A DNA stretch of 64,000 nucleotides from a virus, in the IMG/VR virus record IMGVR_UViG_3300028902_000368. One strand, 5' to 3'. Shown piece by piece: positions 8,815 through 17,228 of this stretch. Position 1 is the first letter of the stretch; the number at the start of each line of letters is the position of its first letter. The translations under genes and the position numbers were made by a program. The notes beneath the pieces were generated by a model. The model was not told where the DNA came from. It worked only from the letters and a program-made list of their open reading frames with translations, and searched no databases.

Positions 8815-9331
8815 CCGTCTCCGTCTCCCTCTCTCGGTCGGCCGTCTCTCGATCGGCCGTCTTTCGGTACTCGGTGAGGACGCGCAGCAGGCGCGTCTCT
8901 TCTTCGTCGGAGAGTTCCCCGACGGTCACCAGCTTGCGGGGCGTCTCCTCTTCCTCTTCGGCGGCCGCTTCCTGTGCCTGCTCGTCGCTCTCGTCGTCGA
9001 AGTCGAACTCGAGGCGGCGGGGTGGCGGCATCGTTCGGGCGGGCGGTGGGGGAGGAGGTGCTCTCTTGCGCCGCTTCGCCTCCGGGACCGCGGGCACGGT
9101 CGGCGGTGGGGGAGGGGGCGGCCGAGCGGGGGCGGCGAGCGCAGGATCGACGATCCGGATGTGCTCGTGGAGGAGGTAGTGGATCTTCTTCTGCTCTCGC
9201 AGGCGCCGGAGCACGCTCCTGATGGTTTCCACCTTGGTCCCCCACTCCTCTGCGGACTGCGCGATGTGCGCGATGCCGCCGTGGATGCGTACGTGCGCCA
9301 GGATCTGGCTCTGCAAGTCACTGGCGGCCAT
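8804..9331 (-). CDS. Putative HTH DNA-binding protein with Pro-rich/acidic tail
   Basis: IAQSAEEWGTKVETIRSVLRRLREQKKI is winged-HTH-like. Confidence 0.55.
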   Translation of the reverse strand: MAASDLQSQILAHVRIHGGIAHIAQSAEEWGTKVETIRSVLRRLREQKKIHYLLHEHIRIVDPALAAPARPPPPPPPTVPAVPEAKRRKRAPPPPPPARTMPPPRRLEFDFDDESDEQAQEAAAEEEEETPRKLVTVGELSDEEETRLLRVLTEYRKTADRETADRERETETDGT

Positions 9332-9403
9332 GGGTCAGCCTACCATGGTCCGCACAGGTCCGTCACGGTGGCTCTTTCGGCCCATGTCTGGTACCATCGC
9401 CGC

Positions 9404-9721
9404 ATGGAATCACCGCCCCCGCCTCCCGCACCCGCCAAGAAACCCATCGAGTTCCTGATCGCCGACGCGGTCCAGTCCGCGACCACGATCAAGGGCATGC
9501 TCTCCGAGTCGGGTCTCCTCTACAAGACCTGCGTCCAGGCGGCCGAGCTGTGCAACCGGCGCCTGACCCACGCCATCTTCGTGCAGCTCACGGCCACCGA
9601 AATCTGCCAGCTGATCGACGCCAGCGTCGCCCTGACGATCGCCAGCATCGTCGTCGACAAGCCCGCCCTCCCCTCCATCATCTCGAACGCCCCCCGCATC
9701 CGCGAGGAGACCGAGAACTGA
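9404..9721 (+). CDS. Hypothetical protein
   Basis: GC3-rich frame; divergent from the upstream gene. Confidence 0.65.
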   Translation: MESPPPPPAPAKKPIEFLIADAVQSATTIKGMLSESGLLYKTCVQAAELCNRRLTHAIFVQLTATEICQLIDASVALTIASIVVDKPALPSIISNAPRIREETEN

Positions 9722-9722
9722 G

Positions 9723-10361
9723 ATGGGCGGGAAGCACGACCCCAGCTACAAGCTGGTCGTGGACCCACGGATCCGCGCCGCACGGGCCACGGCCAACATC
9801 AGCAACCAGATCAAGCTGATCCGGGAGCAGCTCGGTTTCACGCGCAGCGACTGGGCGCCCAAGGTCGGGGTCAAGGTGATGCGGCTGCGCAAGATGGAGC
9901 TTGGGGGCGCCCGGCCATCGCTCAAGATGCTGGCTGCCATCGTGGCGATCGTCGGCAAGCCCGTGTTCGAGGTGTTCGCGGTCGGCGAGGCCGCGCGGGA
10001 AAAGGCCGAACTCGCGATCGCCGCGAGCACCGCTCCACCGCCACGCAAGAGCGCCACCCCTCGCAAGAAGCCCGGCAGCCGCGGGCCCGCACGGGTCGCG
10101 CCTCCACCCGGGCCGCCTGCCGAGGTGGTCGAGGTGGTGTCCGACGGGCCCCGGGCCGTGACGCTCGAGGACCTCATCCCCGCCGACCTCCGCATCAACC
10201 TGTTGGCGCCCCCAGTGACCCATGGCGCGCATCTCGCCACCGCGCAGGCACCCGGACGGCGGACGTTCTCGGCGACCGGTCCGACGGCGGCCGCCGCGCT
10301 CGCGGCCGCGATCGCACAGGCGCAGACCGACCGCTCGCGCCTCGCCAAGGTCAACGCATGA
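9723..10361 (+). CDS. XRE-family HTH transcriptional regulator
   Basis: IKLIREQLGFTRSDWAPKVGV...LRKMELGGARPSLKMLAAI. Confidence 0.75.
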   Translation: MGGKHDPSYKLVVDPRIRAARATANISNQIKLIREQLGFTRSDWAPKVGVKVMRLRKMELGGARPSLKMLAAIVAIVGKPVFEVFAVGEAAREKAELAIAASTAPPPRKSATPRKKPGSRGPARVAPPPGPPAEVVEVVSDGPRAVTLEDLIPADLRINLLAPPVTHGAHLATAQAPGRRTFSATGPTAAAALAAAIAQAQTDRSRLAKVNA

Positions 10362-10681
10362 CCCTCGACGAAATCCTCGCCGCCATCCCCACGCTCTCGG
10401 GAGACGACGTCGCCATCGTTCGCGACAGCCTCCCGCCCACGGCCTCGCCGTGGTCCGAGCCCAAGGGCTCGTTGCGCTCTGTCCGCGGGCGGACTCTGGA
10501 CGACCCTCAGGTCTGGTGTGCTGCCGTCTTCCCACTGGACGACGGCCGGTGGTGTGCGCGGGTTCGCTCGTTGAACGGTCCGGCGGTCGAGTGCGTGCGC
10601 GACTCCGAGGCCGACGCGAGGGTTTGGTGCGACCAGCGCCTGGCCGATGACGGGATCGCGCTCCGCACGAAGACCGGCTAA
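10358..10681 (+). CDS. Hypothetical protein
   Basis: ATGA overlap. Confidence 0.6.
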   Translation: MTLDEILAAIPTLSGDDVAIVRDSLPPTASPWSEPKGSLRSVRGRTLDDPQVWCAAVFPLDDGRWCARVRSLNGPAVECVRDSEADARVWCDQRLADDGIALRTKTG

Positions 10682-10690
10682 CCTCGGCGG

Positions 10691-11104
10691 GTGGCCACGG
10701 TCCGGAAGAAGCGTTCGCGCAAGCGGCGGCGGGGGGCGCGCCGGTCGACCGTGCGCGCCGTGCGCCCCACCCGGCTCGCGGTCGCCGAGATCCCCGCCGG
10801 GGTCTCCAAGGCGGCCGCGGACGGCCTCCGCCTCGTGGACGAAGGGTTCGGAGGGGCAGGGCTGACGGAGGGCGCGCTCGATCGCGCGCGGGCGCTCGCG
10901 CGTGGCGGTAGCATCCCGCGCGAGACCCTCCGCATGATGCGAAACTGGTTCCGTCGCCACCAGGTAGACCATCGGCCGGGCTGGGACCGGGATCACACCC
11001 ACGGTTGGGTCGCGTGGCAGCTCTGGGGCGGCCACGCAGGCTGGCGCTGGGCCGAGCGGCTCGAGGGGGACCCTCCGTGGACGATCCCGGCCTGGGCATC
11101 GTAG
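10691..11104 (+). CDS. Phage protein with AWxLWGG domain and basic N-terminus
   Basis: RARALARG...RMMRNWFRRH...GWVAWQLWGGHAGWRWA, a motif seen in phage head-region proteins. Confidence 0.65.
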   Translation: MATVRKKRSRKRRRGARRSTVRAVRPTRLAVAEIPAGVSKAAADGLRLVDEGFGGAGLTEGALDRARALARGGSIPRETLRMMRNWFRRHQVDHRPGWDRDHTHGWVAWQLWGGHAGWRWAERLEGDPPWTIPAWAS

Positions 11105-11113
11105 GATGGTCCG

Positions 11114-11620
11114 GTGACCCGCTTCGACGAGCTCTCTGCCCTCGGCGTCCAGGTGGCGGCCGACGCCAAGATCGACTCCATGGTCGTCACCGCACTCGCG
11201 GCTGTCGGGCTCACGATGCCGTTGCTCCAGAAGCTGGTCGTGCATCACCCCGTGGGGTGCGCATGCGCGAACTGTGACCCTCAGGCGACCAGGACACCGT
11301 TCCGGGTTGACCGTGAGCTGTGGCTCGACCTCGTGCGACGCTGGGCGCCTCGCGGCCGCCCGTCCATCGCAATGGGGTCGCACCACTACCACCTGTCGGT
11401 CTCCCCAGTGGACGCCGACCGCGCCCAGATGGCGCTCGCCGAGGCGGGCGACCACCTCGAGCGGCAGGTGCTGGTGGACGGACTCTACGACGAGCTGACC
11501 GAGGCGAACCCCGAGCTGGCGACCATCCCGACTCGTGACCCACGCGCACGACACTGGGTCGTCGTGGGGGCACTGTCTGGCCTCGGCCCTGCCGAGATTC
11601 GCGACTTCGTCAGCGGCTGA
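11114..11620 (+). CDS. Hypothetical protein (HPxxCxCxxC motif)
   Basis: ORF immediately left of the repeat region. Confidence 0.6.
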   Translation: MTRFDELSALGVQVAADAKIDSMVVTALAAVGLTMPLLQKLVVHHPVGCACANCDPQATRTPFRVDRELWLDLVRRWAPRGRPSIAMGSHHYHLSVSPVDADRAQMALAEAGDHLERQVLVDGLYDELTEANPELATIPTRDPRARHWVVVGALSGLGPAEIRDFVSG

Positions 11621-11639
11621 GCGCTGCGGAGACACGAGG

Positions 11640-12279
11640 CTACGACCTGCGGGGTCTTGTGAATCAGGCCGCGGTCTAGCCCGCCAAGCCGTGATTCGTC
11701 CACCTGCCATGTGCTTGATACTGGTGCCCTGCCTAGCGGTCACGTACAACCTGCGCGCGCGTGTCCTGCTCGCAACGCCTTGGCGGGTCCTGCACGTATC
11801 GGCGAACTGGCCCGGACCCCTGCTGTGTACCGCACGTGCGTAGAACCTCAGGCCCGCTCGCCCAAGATCCGTGACTCCGTCACCTGCGCTTCGAGCTCCG
11901 GGGTCAGCGGTCCCTGCGGTAGTGCGCCTTCGCCCTGAGAACCCCACACACGCAGATCGGATTGGCCTGGCCGTTGCGCCTGCATCTACAGGAACCCGCG
12001 ACCCCTGACGCAGAGCCCTTGGGCGACCCAGCATGTGCGCGACGACCCTGCGCGAATCTTCGTGAGGCAAGATAGCCTGAGCGGACACCCTACGATCGAC
12101 ACACAATCGGAGGTGGACTGCATCGCGACGTCCTGACGATCCTCCACAAGGCTATCCCGGCGGGGCTCCTGCGGTCATCCATCGAAGCGTCCCCTCCCTG
12201 ACCAGGCCGCTACCCTAGACGTACTCCTGAACGAACGCAGCCCAACAACGCTATGGCGTTTTTCCGCAGAGCCAGTGGG
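11640..12279. repeat. Eroded trailer of the CRISPR-like array (CCTG-periodic relic)
   Basis: 19 CCTG on + versus 4 CAGG in about 600 nt; includes decayed repeats such as CCTGAGAACCCCACACACGCAG (11934) and CCTGAACGAACGCAG (12226). Confidence 0.6.
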
Positions 12280-13459
12280 CCTGAACCAATCCACACACCG
12301 CGCAGGCCGCTAAAAACTCCAGGGGTGTTCGCCATTGAGCCTGACCGTAAACCATCGCGCTCGAGGCCTGAACGAATCCACATGGGGCGAAGGCGGGCTC
12401 ACGTCGCGCCACCTGAACGAAATCCACACACCACGCACCCCGAAGTCCAGAGCCTATTCGTGGACGCCCTCCTGCGTCGTGCGTCGTGATCGAGCCGTCG
12501 GTGGCCCGCCAGCCTGAACGAATCCACACACCACGCAGGCCACTCAGCAGTCGAGCTGGGTACTGTGTCAGGTGTCGTGCCTGAACAAATCCACACACCA
12601 CGCAAGAGGACCGGCATCGTGCACGCAGTTCCTGAACGACAGCGACGGCATGACCCTGAACCACGCAGGCCGCTCAACCGACAGCGCGGGCCTGCGAACG
12701 AGCGTGAAGTTCGAGCCTGAACGAATCCACACACCACGCAGGCTGCCTGAACGAATCCACACACCACGCAGGCCGCTCAACATGCCATCGACTTCACGCG
12801 GGGCTCGCAGCCGCTCCCCCTGAACGAATCCACACACCACGCAGGCCGCTCAACCGGCGAGTTTCGTGCGGACGCTGGCCAAGAGCGCGAACCTGAATCC
12901 GCCGCACACCACGCAGGCCGCTCACTGGGAACCGGACGCCATACACGAGAAGGCCCCTGAGCGAATCCACACACCACGCAGGCAATGGTTGACGAGGTGA
13001 CCGAGTGGCCCTGAACGAATCCACACACCATGCAGGCCGCTCAACCCGCGAGCTGGTCTAGGTCATGGCCCTGAACGAATCCACAACCGCGCAGGCCGCG
13101 ACCTAGAAGAACTGTCGGCCTTCCCCCCTGAACGAGCTTCGTTCGCGCAGAGCCCTGAGCGAATCCACACCACGCGAGAAGCTGGTCGACGATGTGATCG
13201 CCCTGAACGAATCCACACAACGCGGGCCGCTCAAACGAATCCACAGCGCAGGCCGCGACCCAGAAGAGCTGTCGGGCCCTGAACGAATCCACACACCACG
13301 CAGGCCGCTCAACCAAGCGGCGAGCGGACCTTCCGCACCGGACCCCAGGTCCTGAACGAATCCACACCCCACGCAGGCCGCTCAACGGAACGGGTGGGCG
13401 TACGCTGGGTGCTGGTCTGCGCGCCTGAACGAATCCACACACCACGCAGGCCGCTCAAC
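12280..13459. CRISPR. Degenerate CRISPR-like array without cas genes; repeat CCTGAACGAATCCACACACCACGCAGGCCGCTCAAC (36 nt)
   Basis: About 20 full or partial repeats; intact or near-intact copies at 12513, 12746, 12819, 13010, 13278, 13351 and 13424; four intervals have exactly 37-nt unique spacers. Confidence 0.8.
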
Positions 13460-13640
13460 AGGTAACCGAATCACATCAGCAATGTTGTGGGCTTACGTCT
13501 CGCATTGCGAGAGGTCCATCCGAAGATGGTTCTCGAGTGCCGTGAACCACGACCTCGAGTTACGGCGACCGCAGTTCGCCGACAGAGATCACTAGTAGAT
13601 CACGCTCTACCAACGCGCAAGGGTCATTGCGAGCGCCGCC

Positions 13641-13934
13641 TCACTTTTTCGGATCACCGGCGTTCTCGCATGGTCCACAACTACCCATATGTGCCACCTG
13701 GCAACCGGCGCACACGGGCCGCTCGATGGGGTCGCCGCGACGCACGTTGCCTCGGCGGTCCTCTGCCCAGACGCCAACCTTGCAAAGGTCACGACGCACC
13801 GCCGTGGCTCCACAGAAGAAGCACGGGCGAGCGGTGCTGCGCTCGTGGTCGAGCGTCACCCGCGCTCCCGCCCGCTCGAGCAGCCTCGCCAGTCGCTCGA
13901 TGGGCGAGTCGCCCTCTTCCTCCCCGTTCCCCAC
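13641..13934 (-). CDS. Small zinc-finger protein
   Basis: CFFC, CAGC and CGPC motifs. Confidence 0.55.
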   Translation of the reverse strand: MGNGEEEGDSPIERLARLLERAGARVTLDHERSTARPCFFCGATAVRRDLCKVGVWAEDRRGNVRRGDPIERPVCAGCQVAHMGSCGPCENAGDPKK

Positions 13935-13937
13935 GAC

Positions 13938-14606
13938 TCAGTCGACGTTCGAGAGGCCACCCATCAGGCGACGGAACAGCGAGACCGACTGCGACGGAGG
14001 CGTCGCCTCGATCGCCTTTTCCATCTTGGCGACGTCGCGCGCGATCGCCTGCGTCTCCACGGCCGGACTCGGAGGCGCGCCCTCCATCGCAGAGCGACGC
14101 TGCACCTCGGCCAGCTGCTGGCGGAGCTTCTCGGCCACCCGAGCCTGACGCGCGAACTCGTCCTGAGCTCCACCGAAGCGGCCGAGCGCGGTCACCACCG
14201 GCGCTGGGAGCTGCCCACGGGTCCACTTGACAAGCGCATCCTCCGCCGCGGCCGCCTGCTCGGGCGAGACTGGACGGCCTTCGGCGGCCGCCGCCATCTG
14301 CTCGACCTCGGCGACTTCTTCCGCGATGGTGCCGATCAGACGGCGCATCTCGTTCGCGTCGTGCTTCGCGGAGGCGATCGCCACCTCCGTCCGCTCCGTG
14401 ATCTCCTCGATCGTCTTCAAGCGACGCTTCGGAGCTGCCCCACCCTTGTGGCCCGCTCGGACCGCCGTCTCGTGGTCGAACTGGTAGCAGCCGCCCTTCG
14501 CTCGAGCTGCCTTCTGCCCCTTGCTCGCGATCTTCTTGCGCTCCTCGGGGGGCACGCAGGCCAGGCCACGCAACTGCTTGCCATCGGGTCCGACCTTGAA
14601 CGGCAT
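13938..14606 (-). CDS. KGG-repeat (stress-induced motif) protein with coiled coil
   Basis: RGLACVPPEERKKIASKGQKAA...FDHETAVRAGHKGG. Confidence 0.7.
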   Translation of the reverse strand: MPFKVGPDGKQLRGLACVPPEERKKIASKGQKAARAKGGCYQFDHETAVRAGHKGGAAPKRRLKTIEEITERTEVAIASAKHDANEMRRLIGTIAEEVAEVEQMAAAAEGRPVSPEQAAAAEDALVKWTRGQLPAPVVTALGRFGGAQDEFARQARVAEKLRQQLAEVQRRSAMEGAPPSPAVETQAIARDVAKMEKAIEATPPSQSVSLFRRLMGGLSNVD

Positions 14607-14618
14607 CGTGCCCCCAGT

Positions 14619-15071
14619 CTAGCCGATCTCCGCGGCCTTCGCGCGGGACCGCTTCTTCGGCTTCTCGGCGGCCGCGCCCATGGCCCGCGGGTGACCGCGG
14701 CGGGCACGGTTCTCCGGGGGCGTCAGGTGCCACGCGCAGATCCCGAAGAGGTCGCAGCCTGGACACCCGGGCTCTCGGTCGGGGTGGGTCTTGTTGCGCT
14801 CGTACTGGTCGATCATCCACTGCGGCACGTAGGCCGCCTGCCCGTGAGACACCTTCAACGAGGGGTGGAACGCCCACGTGCAGCGGCTCTCCCGCGCCGC
14901 GAGCGTCACCATGCGCGGGTGCAGCGTGCCGTGGGCGAGGTTCGCCTGCTGAACGCGCCGCGCTTCGTCGCCCTGCGCGTGGGCCTTCTCGCACGCGGCG
15001 AGCGCGCGCGACCACGCGAGGACGGTGTCGAGCAGCTCGCGCTCCCCCTCGGTGCAGGTCAGGATCTTCAC
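14619..15071 (-). CDS. Hypothetical protein
   Basis: GTG start with GGAGG RBS; GTGA overlap. Confidence 0.6.
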   Translation of the reverse strand: MKILTCTEGERELLDTVLAWSRALAACEKAHAQGDEARRVQQANLAHGTLHPRMVTLAARESRCTWAFHPSLKVSHGQAAYVPQWMIDQYERNKTHPDREPGCPGCDLFGICAWHLTPPENRARRGHPRAMGAAAEKPKKRSRAKAAEIG

Positions 15072-15607
15072 GACGTCTCGGCCTCCTCCGTCTCCATCTG
15101 CTTGGGCGGACGTTCCGCGGGCTCGAGCATCCGCATGGTGGACAGAGACCGCACCAGCACCACCGCCATCGTCTCGGCAGCCCCGACGGCCCACGTGTGC
15201 AACCGCCCGTCCGTGATCGGGAGCAGCGCGAGACTGCTGACGGCCTTGATGGCCTCCGCCCTCTGCCCGGACGCCATCTCGCTCCCGTCACCCCACAACT
15301 CGTGCGCACGGCGCAGCTTCCAGACGATGTCGTCGCAGCGCGCGATGTCGTGCAGGATTGCGTAGATCGCCCGCGCGCGGCCCACCATGTCCGTCACCGT
15401 GAGGGTCTGCACCAGACGCTCGTGCTGTGACGCAACGTGCCTGCTCACTTCGTTGATCGTCAGCTCAAGCATCGCGGGCATGAGGCTGCGGAGCTGTGGG
15501 CTCTCGTCTGCCCCCTGCGCCGCCACGTTGCGGAGGGCTTCCGGGAAGGTCAGCCCCACCGACACAGCCAGCGTCTCGATGTTCGGAGTGAGGTAGATCG
15601 CTCTCAT
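15068..15607 (-). CDS. Hypothetical protein
   Basis: ATGA overlap with the methylase gene. Confidence 0.65.
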   Translation of the reverse strand: MRAIYLTPNIETLAVSVGLTFPEALRNVAAQGADESPQLRSLMPAMLELTINEVSRHVASQHERLVQTLTVTDMVGRARAIYAILHDIARCDDIVWKLRRAHELWGDGSEMASGQRAEAIKAVSSLALLPITDGRLHTWAVGAAETMAVVLVRSLSTMRMLEPAERPPKQMETEEAETS

Positions 15608-16515
15608 AGGAATCCTTGGAACAGGGTGGGCTGACGGTTGCCGAGACAGTGAGGGGAGAGCCAGAGGCACTCGCTCTGGCCGTTCGAGCGGACGCCGCGG
15701 GAACCGTTCTTCGCCGACCAGAGGACCTTGCGCCAGCCCGTAGGCATCTCGTGGTCGCTCTCGAGCCCGCAGAGCACGATGCGCAGGCGGCGGTCTTCCC
15801 CGCGTTCGACTGCCCACTTCCGGACGTCCTCCGCCAGCGCGCCGCCCACGCCTCCGGCCGCGTAGTCCATGTCCCCCTTCGCGTAGGGAGGGTCCAAGAG
15901 CACACCGACGGTCGTCGCCGCACCGTTCTGCTGGCAGAAGAGGACGCTGTCCGTGACCACGCGCGTCCAGTCCCCGCACGCCACCCGAACCGGGCGCAGG
16001 CGCGCTTGGAGGTCGGAGAACCACTGGACGAGCTCGCTGCGTCCCGTCCGCTTGCGGAGCACCCCGTTCTGGGAGGCGAGCTTGGGCAGCTGGCGGCGCG
16101 GCTTCTTCCCGTCGCACCACGTACCACCGATCCACTGGCAGAGCCCCCAGACCCACCACGCCGCCGCCGTGACGTCGTAGAAGTGCGGGTCGGTCATCAC
16201 CTCCTCGCGGATCGCCTCGTGACGCTCGTGGAGGCGCAGGTGCCGCGCATGGAGGTCGGCCTCGTTCACGGGCCAGTCGACCTTCTTCGCCAGCTCCTCG
16301 GGGTTGGCTGCCGCGGCCCGCCAGAAGTTCGCGATCAGCGCGTCCTTGTCGTTGACCGTCTCGATGACCCCCGGACCCCCTGGACGACCCAGCAGGGTCG
16401 CGAGAGACCCGGCGAAGGGCTCGACGTAGTGCCCCACGTTGGCGCCCAGCGCGTCCCAGATCGCCGGGGCCGCCAGCGACTTGCCTCCGTACCAGGGGAA
16501 GGGCGCGTCGATCAT
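15604..16515 (-). CDS. Dam-like (D12 class) DNA adenine methyltransferase
   Basis: PFPWYGGKS, YVEPFAGS, VND and DPPY motifs. Confidence 0.9.
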   Translation of the reverse strand: MIDAPFPWYGGKSLAAPAIWDALGANVGHYVEPFAGSLATLLGRPGGPGVIETVNDKDALIANFWRAAAANPEELAKKVDWPVNEADLHARHLRLHERHEAIREEVMTDPHFYDVTAAAWWVWGLCQWIGGTWCDGKKPRRQLPKLASQNGVLRKRTGRSELVQWFSDLQARLRPVRVACGDWTRVVTDSVLFCQQNGAATTVGVLLDPPYAKGDMDYAAGGVGGALAEDVRKWAVERGEDRRLRIVLCGLESDHEMPTGWRKVLWSAKNGSRGVRSNGQSECLWLSPHCLGNRQPTLFQGFL

Positions 16516-16964
16516 CGGATCGAGGCCGTGGGCCACGGTTCGAGCGCGAGAGTGAGCCACACCTCGTCGACCAGCTGCTGCTTGAGGTCGCCGTGCCGAC
16601 TCGAGGGAACCAGCGCGAACGGAGGTCCGACGGGCGCATCGGTCCGTGCCTCCACGAAAACCGTCGCGTGCGGGATGATCATCGGGTAGGGCGGCCGTGC
16701 GCGATGCTCGATCTGGATCTTGGTGCAGAGCCACCAACCGTTCTCCATGGCGATCTTCGCGAGCTGGTCGAGCTTCGGGAAGTAGAGCTGGTGCGCCCAC
16801 TTCTTGAACCACTCGCGCATGTCCTCGAGCGCGTCTTCGACGTTCGCGTAGTAGGTCCCGACGGGACACTCCTCCTTCGCCTCGAGACAGGCGTTGCGCA
16901 GAATGCGGTGGGGGTCACGGGCCACCCACGCGGCCGCCTTCGTACCGATGGTCTCCTCCGGCAT
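16512..16964 (-). CDS. Hypothetical protein
   Basis: ATGA overlap with the methylase. Confidence 0.65.
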   Translation of the reverse strand: MPEETIGTKAAAWVARDPHRILRNACLEAKEECPVGTYYANVEDALEDMREWFKKWAHQLYFPKLDQLAKIAMENGWWLCTKIQIEHRARPPYPMIIPHATVFVEARTDAPVGPPFALVPSSRHGDLKQQLVDEVWLTLALEPWPTASIR

Positions 16965-16967
16965 CGC

Positions 16968-17228
16968 CTACTTTCCTCCGTAGATCAGCGTGGGCTGAAC
17001 GACGTGCTTCGCGGCCTCGTGCTCCCGGAGGAACTCCTCGAGACCGTCCTTGTCCGCCTCGGACAGCGCCTCGCTCAGCGAGGTCACGTCCTCGACGATC
17101 TCGATGTCCGCAGGCAGCTCCCCGTAGGCCGACTCCCCGCAGTCGCAGCGGAAGCCGAACATCGGGGGGACGCGGGCGGCGGCGGAGGTGCGGATCGGCT
17201 CCTCGTAGATGAAGAGCCGGTTCTGCAT
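16968..17228 (-). CDS. Hypothetical protein
   Basis: FRCDCG motif; acidic. Confidence 0.55.
   Translation of the reverse strand: MQNRLFIYEEPIRTSAAARVPPMFGFRCDCGESAYGELPADIEIVEDVTSLSEALSEADKDGLEEFLREHEAAKHVVQPTLIYGGK

Follow-up and report, generated by a model that had tools for sequence, protein, structure and literature searches.

The virus record IMGVR_UViG_3300028902_000368 of IMG/VR, a 64,000-nt stretch of which is analysed here (the window), carries a large array of 36-nt repeats and unique 37-nt spacers. With slightly better than even confidence, we take this locus for a virus-borne orphan CRISPR array that is expressed and relies on CRISPR-associated (Cas) proteins supplied in trans. 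The dependence on an outside partner is proposed because the element encodes no recognisable Cas protein. The window has a GC content of 67% and is treated as part of a phage-like mobile element of a high-GC bacterium, the word "phage" resting on PHROG content and genome style. Its own lineage is called strain A below, and it is compared with a sister, strain B, and with a more distant lineage, strain C.

Array architecture and leader

Read on the plus strand, the 36-nt repeat is CCTGAACGAATCCACACACCACGCAGGCCGCTCAAC. Seven copies lie within three mismatches of it, four of them exact (starting at 12746, 12819, 13278 and 13424) and three with one or two mismatches, where shuffled sequences (n=100) lead one to expect none. 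Iterative local alignment raises the count to 26 copies and fragments at 11665-13459, of which 23 are inside 12203-13459; the "about 20 copies" given by an earlier sequence-only reading of this DNA is thus a fair estimate. The same reading had named four spacers of exactly 37 nt between intact repeats (12782-12818, 12855-12891, 13314-13350 and 13387-13423), which is correct, and a fifth can be added at 12679-12715. The array has a period of 73 nt and its inserts are unique. The spacers are mutually unrelated except for one old duplication, now diverged, inside the array (13086-13118 versus 13243-13275). A 36-nt repeat with 37-nt spacers falls within the generic definition of CRISPR as direct repeats of 23-55 nt around unique, uniform spacers. 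The spacers have a mean GC content of 67% and a period-3 GC signal of 0.314, against 0.231 in shuffles (P = 0.003), which is consistent with captured high-GC coding DNA. Coding potential within the array itself is ruled out by the phase of GC at third codon positions (GC3): about 11620-13640 is a non-coding gap of some 2 kb between converging genes, with a plus-strand operon ending at 11620, a minus-strand operon ending at 13641, and the array between them.

About 19 of the repeat copies of strain A are truncated, and about two thirds of all copies are damaged. The leftward decay described earlier holds overall, the stretch 11640-12279 being barely recognisable, but it is not monotonic, as the exact copies at 12746 and 12819 stand amid damaged ones. 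The plus-strand orientation assumed earlier is probably wrong: the best copies and the conserved flank are both on the right, which puts the leader there, at 13460-13640, and orients the array on the minus strand (GTTGAGCGG...TTCAGG), where it reads GTTGAGCGGCCTGCGTGGTGTGTGGATTCGTTCAGG. The repeat was said to pair only weakly, and it is indeed not significantly structured (-2.0 kcal/mol on the plus strand; slightly better on the minus strand, at -9.5 kcal/mol and z -0.7).

The leader contains a 90-nt block with four hairpins (fold -48.1 kcal/mol, z -2.3) that shows 0 differences in strain B and 0 in strain C, in which the neighbouring non-coding DNA is 36-42% different. This block begins 6-7 nt downstream of a -10-like TACTAG, and transcription would start at about its first base. 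Strains B and C retain the putative -35 as well as the first three letters (TAC) of the -10, despite 20 of 55 changed positions in that stretch of strain C. Beyond the window, close to the 105-kb contig's far end (L023:14378-14508, minus strand), the promoter and the first three hairpins have a diverged paralogue, with 88.6% identity over 70 nt and a compensatory change from G:C to A:U in hairpin 2. It is likewise preceded by TTGCGC-17-ATCTAC, and it stands between a DprA/DUF488-like and a DUF6884 gene, antisense into the former, with no array adjoining. The leader block has no Rfam match. Duplex folding finds no anti-repeat complementarity to the repeat beyond shuffled controls, which rules out the block as a trans-activating CRISPR RNA (tracrRNA). 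A more speculative thought, to which we give a small chance, is that the four-hairpin leader RNA serves the phage as a new regulatory RNA by licensing long stretches of non-coding transcription. Whatever the array does, this invariant RNA is a separate, testable candidate regulatory element.

Parts of the stretch 13278-13600, which comprises leader and first units, are present in three metatranscriptome studies. One RNA contig of 86 nt (metatranscriptome X17) covers 13430-13515 with 0 differences, taking in leader and 30 nt of repeat 1, at a depth of 13.7 against 3-4.3 for contigs of the flanking genes. Another (X21) links 12495-12546 to 13009-13079 through 88 other letters, which is the arrangement of strain B and runs repeat-spacer-repeat. 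Presence in RNA libraries is partly shown, and the array may be expressed; the conserved promoter-like stretch suggests the strand and the start.

Strain differences and erosion of the older units

Strain A is found on JGI contigs, the longest of 105,464 bp and all of them 100% identical. Relatives were fetched through the 222-aa gene to the right of the leader, and come from samples other than those of strain A: strain B is represented by a contig of 125,688 bp that belongs to another sample series, and strain C is on a 5.8-kb contig from a third data set, with an 84% identical flanking protein. Among viral contigs, no relative of that 222-aa protein was found. At four-fold degenerate sites, A and B diverge by 11%. 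The array of strain B, which five contigs enter and show alike as far as they reach, has the same repeat, spacers of 36-43 nt, and equal erosion.

Against this background, the leader end of the array is strongly conserved. From 13585 to 13424, which includes the leader block, the linker and the first repeat, there are 0 differences between A and B in 162 positions where about 18 are expected (P ~6e-9), and the linker and first repeat alone are unchanged at all 72 of theirs. The wider stretch of flank, leader and first repeat (14000-13422) is 97% identical. Immediately past the first repeat the leader-proximal units are unrelated, over 286 nt in A versus 326 nt in B. Farther in, blocks shared in the same order at 86-98% identity (13135-13009, 12546-12495, 12179-12046 and 11932-11849) are interspersed with blocks specific to A (13136-13277, 12547-13008 and 12203-12494). 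The two shared blocks of the fossil tail, 12046-12179 and 11849-11932, are 90-93% identical to strain B, and the shared old blocks diverge at about the neutral rate. Two spacers of A (its first two) and one of B (its first), and no others, look like recent gains because they have canonical length and exact flanking repeats. A conserved leader, differences between strains at the leader end and shared older units are what the generic CRISPR description leads one to expect, and strain-specific blocks exist in the interior as well. The pattern between A and B is CRISPR-like: leader and first repeat are selected, the leader end turns over, old spacers drift, and there are internal losses.

Strain C differs from A at 69 of 294 positions in the gene of the 97-aa Cys-rich protein upstream of the leader and at 15 of 36 in the linker. 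All three lineages retain that gene, with changes in its amino acids, and it is missing from JGI gene tables. The repeat of strain C (L031:5741-5790) is identical over its first 20 nt and differs at 4 of 10 positions at 21-30. The part that varies between lineages A and C is therefore the 3' part of the repeat, the same part that erosion spares. The contig of strain C stops 30 nt into this variant repeat, where an assembly at k=31 breaks at repeated sequence; such a break would fit a variant repeat that is iterated too.

The erosion of the older units is one-sided. In strain A, 11 truncated repeats have lost their 5' side and kept their 3' end, and one shows the reverse (binomial P = 0.003); the count is 10 against 1 in strain B and 21:2 over both, some events being common to the two. 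The spacer preceding each truncated repeat is also shortened, to 18-31 nt, at its 3' end, so the deletions reach across the junction at which a spacer's 3' end meets the 5' end of a repeat. Retained repeat lengths form an unbroken series between 31 and 4 nt, in which no functional threshold shows. The most eroded units retain 4-9 nt of repeat, and the oldest keep the terminal CAGG alone. In the tail (11640-12279, minus strand) CAGG occurs 19 times against 3.2 expected, a 6-fold excess that no other 4-mer of the repeat approaches, and the tail of strain B has 13 CAGG in 514 nt. The density is one per 34 nt, where random deletion should give at most one per 73 nt; the spacing, 13-64 nt, is irregular and has no helical phase. 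CAGG is kept at 8 of 9 homologous A/B sites against about 6 expected, in what is an underpowered comparison. Truncation at integration by a slipped first cut was considered and rejected: the preceding spacers are shortened too, and the lengths of spacer and repeat have no constant sum.

Because the old units diverge at the neutral rate, a mutational bias is favoured as the source of this polarity, for instance breaks at the leader-side junction that would stop once a recognition motif is lost. The alternative would be selection for a handle. A bolder version, to which we give a small chance, sees in the one-sided and self-limiting erosion the marks left by an enzyme acting again and again at the leader-side junction of each repeat. 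Such an enzyme might be the Cas1-Cas2 integrase of the host or an activity encoded by the element, and the locus would be a substrate or a sink for integration. Whenever an attack failed or was reversed, a few bases would be lost to either side of the junction, until the motif was gone and the distal CAGG was left. One-sided erosion of this kind was not met in the literature on orphan and phage arrays, in which no search was aimed at it. Since old units are not purged, the array is a record of how CRISPR units decay. Neutral deletion does not account for the 21:2 one-sidedness, nor for a 4-nt tag that survives; these may report either a junction-specific enzymatic process or a minimal requirement for a handle.

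Table 1. Features of the array locus and its flanks (positions in the window; for the array and its leader, the strand is the probable one).
Feature	Position	Strand	Description
Flanking gene, 168 aa	11114..11620	+	Converges on the array from the left
Fossil tail	11640..12202	-	Units shrunk to ~13-64 nt, each terminating in (G/T)CAGG, the last bases of the repeat
Older units	12203..13277	-	Exact, mutated, fused and 5'-truncated repeats mixed; spacers shortened
Leader-proximal intact part of array	13278..13459	-	Three repeats (exact, 1 mismatch, exact) around two 37-nt spacers not in strain B
Variable leader linker	13460..13495	-	Identical in strain B; 15/36 positions differ in strain C; less GC-rich than surroundings
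Invariant leader block, 90 nt	13496..13585	-	Four consecutive hairpins, one with a UUCG loop
Putative array promoter	13586..13620	-	TTGCGC as -35 (13620-13615), 17-nt spacer, -10-like TACTAG (13597-13592)
Gene of Cys-rich protein (CxxC...CxxC...CxxC), 97 aa	13641..13934	-	Directly upstream of the leader, co-oriented
Flanking gene, 222 aa	13938..14606	-	Just right of the leader; anchor for fetching relatives

Cas supply and competing explanations

In the proposed model, minus-strand transcription would begin at the array's own promoter at ~13592-13620, and the transcript would pass through the invariant 90-nt 5' leader, with its hairpins, and on into repeats reading GTTGAGCGGCCTGCGTGGTGTGTGGATTCGTTCAGG. 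Cas proteins in trans, most likely those of the high-GC host, would process it, carry out interference and from time to time add 37-nt spacers at the leader end, and the likely purpose would be to fight competing mobile elements. The leader and first units alone would be under selection, while older units would drift and be deleted at the junctions between spacer 3' and repeat 5' ends.

No cas gene had been recognised in the 64 kb by the sequence-only reading, and this holds when the search is extended to the 105-kb contig and to 40 kb of the 125.7-kb relative. The 84 open reading frames (ORFs) of the window match 16 Pfam families, none of them Cas, and there is no Cas among the 25 of 55 PADLOC families listed. 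Precomputed Pfam tables contain no Cas for the rest of the 105,464-bp contig (L015, L018, L020, L022, L023), nor for positions 84,010-124,008 of the strain B contig (L007, L025, L034; 40 kb); the families outside the window are ChlI, methylases, DUF6094, Mom, DprA/DUF488 and similar. NCBIfam models return no Cas for ten proteins that are large or lie near the array. When the array is compared by BLAST with ~115 kb of the element, no tracrRNA or anti-repeat stands above shuffled controls. As to an association with cas in cis or in trans, no Cas was found among the proteins checked, and no array of the same repeat in other genomes.

The search for relatives of the repeat used an exact 33-mer, a 22-mer core, the paired 3' half (gapped) and the 5' 20-mer GTTGAGCGGCCTGCGTGGTG; the last gave two single chance matches outside any array. 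In the stretch 11500-13800 the array repeat matches no Rfam CRISPR-DR model at E <= 10, in keeping with its earlier description as unfamiliar, and it was not found in the published literature. A megablast of 9000-17000 against INPHARED phages gives no match. The scan of metagenome contigs returned three tandem repeats that are unrelated to that of the array.

Several results weigh against the proposed model, beginning with those that concern the partner and the targets. No array with this repeat was found in the genomes of 185,579 species representatives, and none in IMG/VR viral contigs or the scanned JGI metagenome contigs. Since no other genome or contig was found to share the repeat, the step that involves host Cas is left without a partner. 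No protospacer was found in INPHARED phages or PLSDB plasmids, where matches are at chance level alone, and no spacer matches the element's own ~115 kb in strains A and B. The protospacer searches in contigs were shallow, with exact matches for three spacer cores: two spacers in viral contigs and one in genome contigs, all without a match. Other points concern the locus itself. Most array units are damaged. A stricter sigma-70 consensus scan called no promoter at the array leader. The RNA contigs are unstranded, DNA carry-over is possible, and RNA ends are not visible in them. The leader block may be a general phage 5' RNA element rather than a CRISPR-specific one, because its paralogue stands away from any array. 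One A-specific block holds a diverged copy (13243-13275) of the shared unit 13086-13118, so part of the difference between A and B is an old duplication followed by loss in B.

The interpretation of the locus as a CRISPR-like array, advanced in the sequence-only reading, stands in part, as regards the type of array, the phage-like element, the lack of cas genes and the unfamiliar repeat. Its suggestions about what the array does fare less well. Borrowing of host Cas is something that we still infer, as the repeat search in other genomes found no host array and the spacer search found no match among phages, plasmids, sampled genomes or relatives of the element. The idea that damaged repeats titrate Cas finds no direct support, given that old units drift neutrally and that the most eroded of them keep 4-9 nt.

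The best placed of the competing explanations, unlikely in our estimate, is that we have here a relic, either taken over from a host or left behind by a lost phage CRISPR-Cas system, which decays without supplying working guides while its leader block is kept for another job, as a promoter and 5' RNA element in general use by the phage. The damage to about two thirds of the copies and the neutral drift of the shared old units fit this well, as does the failure to find a cas gene, a matching host array or a protospacer. The paralogue of promoter and block is not beside an array, and the internal duplication reveals strain-specific DNA that is old. What a relic does not readily account for is the unchanged first repeat and linker (0/72) at 11% neutral divergence. 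Both strains also have exact leader-proximal repeats around canonical spacers unique to each of them, which pure decay seldom leaves, and two kb of useless DNA would have to be retained in at least three lineages.

It is improbable that the locus is a multi-copy RNA decoy resembling an RNA anti-CRISPR, in which the 3' handles of the repeats would soak up host Cas and the spacers would be incidental. Inhibition of Cas complexes by viral mimics of repeats is established (PMC10651486, PMC11656645); here the 3' end is kept in truncated copies at 11:1 (A) and 10:1 (B), and the locus is present in RNA libraries. Known RNA anti-CRISPRs (Racrs), however, are solitary units that match a host repeat, and no host repeat is found here. 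The retained lengths descend from 31 to 4 nt without a threshold in units that are neutral, and a decoy has no need of uniform 37-nt spacers or of strain differences at the leader end.

Very improbable is a Cas partner encoded by the element itself, among its family-less proteins: the 658-aa protein at L025:17672-19648, other ORFs of 400-530 aa, or the 97-aa protein as a zinc-finger accessory. Most genes of the element have no Pfam, PHROG or NCBIfam match, compact effectors of phages, Cas-phi for instance, were at first unannotated proteins seen close to phage arrays (PMC7162821), and one explanation put forward for orphan viral arrays is that their effectors are divergent and go undetected (PMC12607003). 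The array has no large ORF beside it, its neighbours being of 97-303 aa, and no tracrRNA-like anti-repeat is found. For the 658-aa protein, a sequence search of the PDB returns nothing at E <= 1, and its gene belongs to a run of likely structural genes.

Least probable of all is a non-CRISPR iteron, centromere, packaging field or new repeat system with a functional, strand-biased CCTG/CAGG tag: CAGG is 6-fold above background where the rest has decayed, the repeat belongs to no known CRISPR family and cas genes are lacking, but unique 37-nt inserts between 36-nt repeats and turnover at the leader end are unlike the layout of iterons or centromeres, and CAGG in the tail shows no helical phase. 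The reading as an origin with iterons was rejected in view of the irregular spacing, the lack of a GC-skew switch at the locus, and flanking genes that converge and do not diverge as at an origin.

The element and other cas-less arrays

The element comes from wastewater bioreactors: the DNA of the window was seen in four bioreactor metagenome runs, all belonging to one study, and related DNA turned up in runs from activated sludge and from other bioreactors. The window genes include, by PHROG matches, a DnaB-type helicase and several HNH endonucleases and methyltransferases; the majority are family-less. No capsid, portal or terminase is recognised in ~125 kb by Pfam or among the PHROG families listed. 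A 426-aa protein (L018:7580-8860) has a weak match to a baseplate-hub PHROG (E 6e-6), and a long run of co-oriented genes left of the window (L034) has no family matches. The flanking proteins of the array give nothing informative in Pfam, PHROG, NCBIfam or the ESM Atlas, and for the 97-aa Cys-rich protein there is no NCBIfam match and no usable ESM Atlas lead.

Twenty tRNA genes lie on the minus strand at 30148-58935 of the window, most of them clustered at 54.5-58.9 kb. At ~37.8-43.6 kb, PADLOC models for E1-E2 together with Pfam ThiF and DUF2604 point to a ubiquitin-like conjugation cluster. The 1292-aa protein at L022:15775-19653 (+) joins DUF6094 to a C-terminal SNF2-like helicase region, and resembles the helicase-methylase fusions of defence and anti-defence systems. 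A 345-aa protein (L023:8800-9837, +) matches at its N-terminus the polyadenylate-specific 3'-exoribonuclease AS (NF033638, E 1e-28). That family is best known from actinobacteria, and the match is a weak hint about the host.

Among cas-less viral forms, mini-arrays and solitary repeat RNAs are the best studied (PMC11656645, PMC10651486). Virus-borne mini-arrays have one or two spacers and repeats identical to those of the host, and most of their spacers target related viruses (PMC6858448, PMC11656645). Like the mini-arrays of Medvedeva et al. (2019), the present locus is cas-less and viral, and is presumed to exploit host CRISPR-Cas. It has more than 20 units, no host match and no spacer that matches strain A or B DNA, which sets it outside the definition of a mini-array. 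Racrs (Camara-Wilpert et al., 2023; PMC10651486) are solitary, spacer-less repeats that mimic a known repeat of the host. The resemblance to them consists in a virus-encoded RNA derived from repeats, and in the preferential keeping of the part that would form the 5' handle of a CRISPR RNA. A long array with uniform spacers, variation at the leader end and no matching host repeat found is not a Racr. The orphan arrays of cells, on bacterial chromosomes and plasmids, usually have a cas-linked counterpart with the same repeat in that cell (PMC9071438). Like them, the locus stands apart from any cas locus and would depend on Cas in trans; unlike them, it has no cas-linked array found to share its repeat.

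The closest parallel is with phage arrays that lack acquisition or interference genes, which are documented and proposed to use host Cas (PMC7162821). These are compact, with a median of six repeats; the cited cases share host repeats, and degeneration at the old end has been noted (PMC7162821). The arrays of Al-Shayeb et al. (2020) have in common with ours a phage-like genome, the lack of Cas1/Cas2/Cas4 and of a recognisable effector, decay at the old end, and a proposed use of host Cas. They differ from it in that the present array has ~26 units followed by a fossil tail, a repeat of no known family and no host match, in an element assembled to ~105-126 kb. Cas-less phage arrays are thus known, and are usually tiny and built with the repeat of the host; here the array is large and old, and its leader is conserved in three lineages. 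If a host system is used, this would point to wastewater bacteria as bearers of a CRISPR-Cas type, or a repeat family, that is as yet uncharacterised, and would provide an example of long-term guide storage by a virus. The locus works most like the phage arrays without acquisition and interference genes, and is set apart from them by its size, its age structure, its repeat family, its invariant structured leader and its one-sided erosion.

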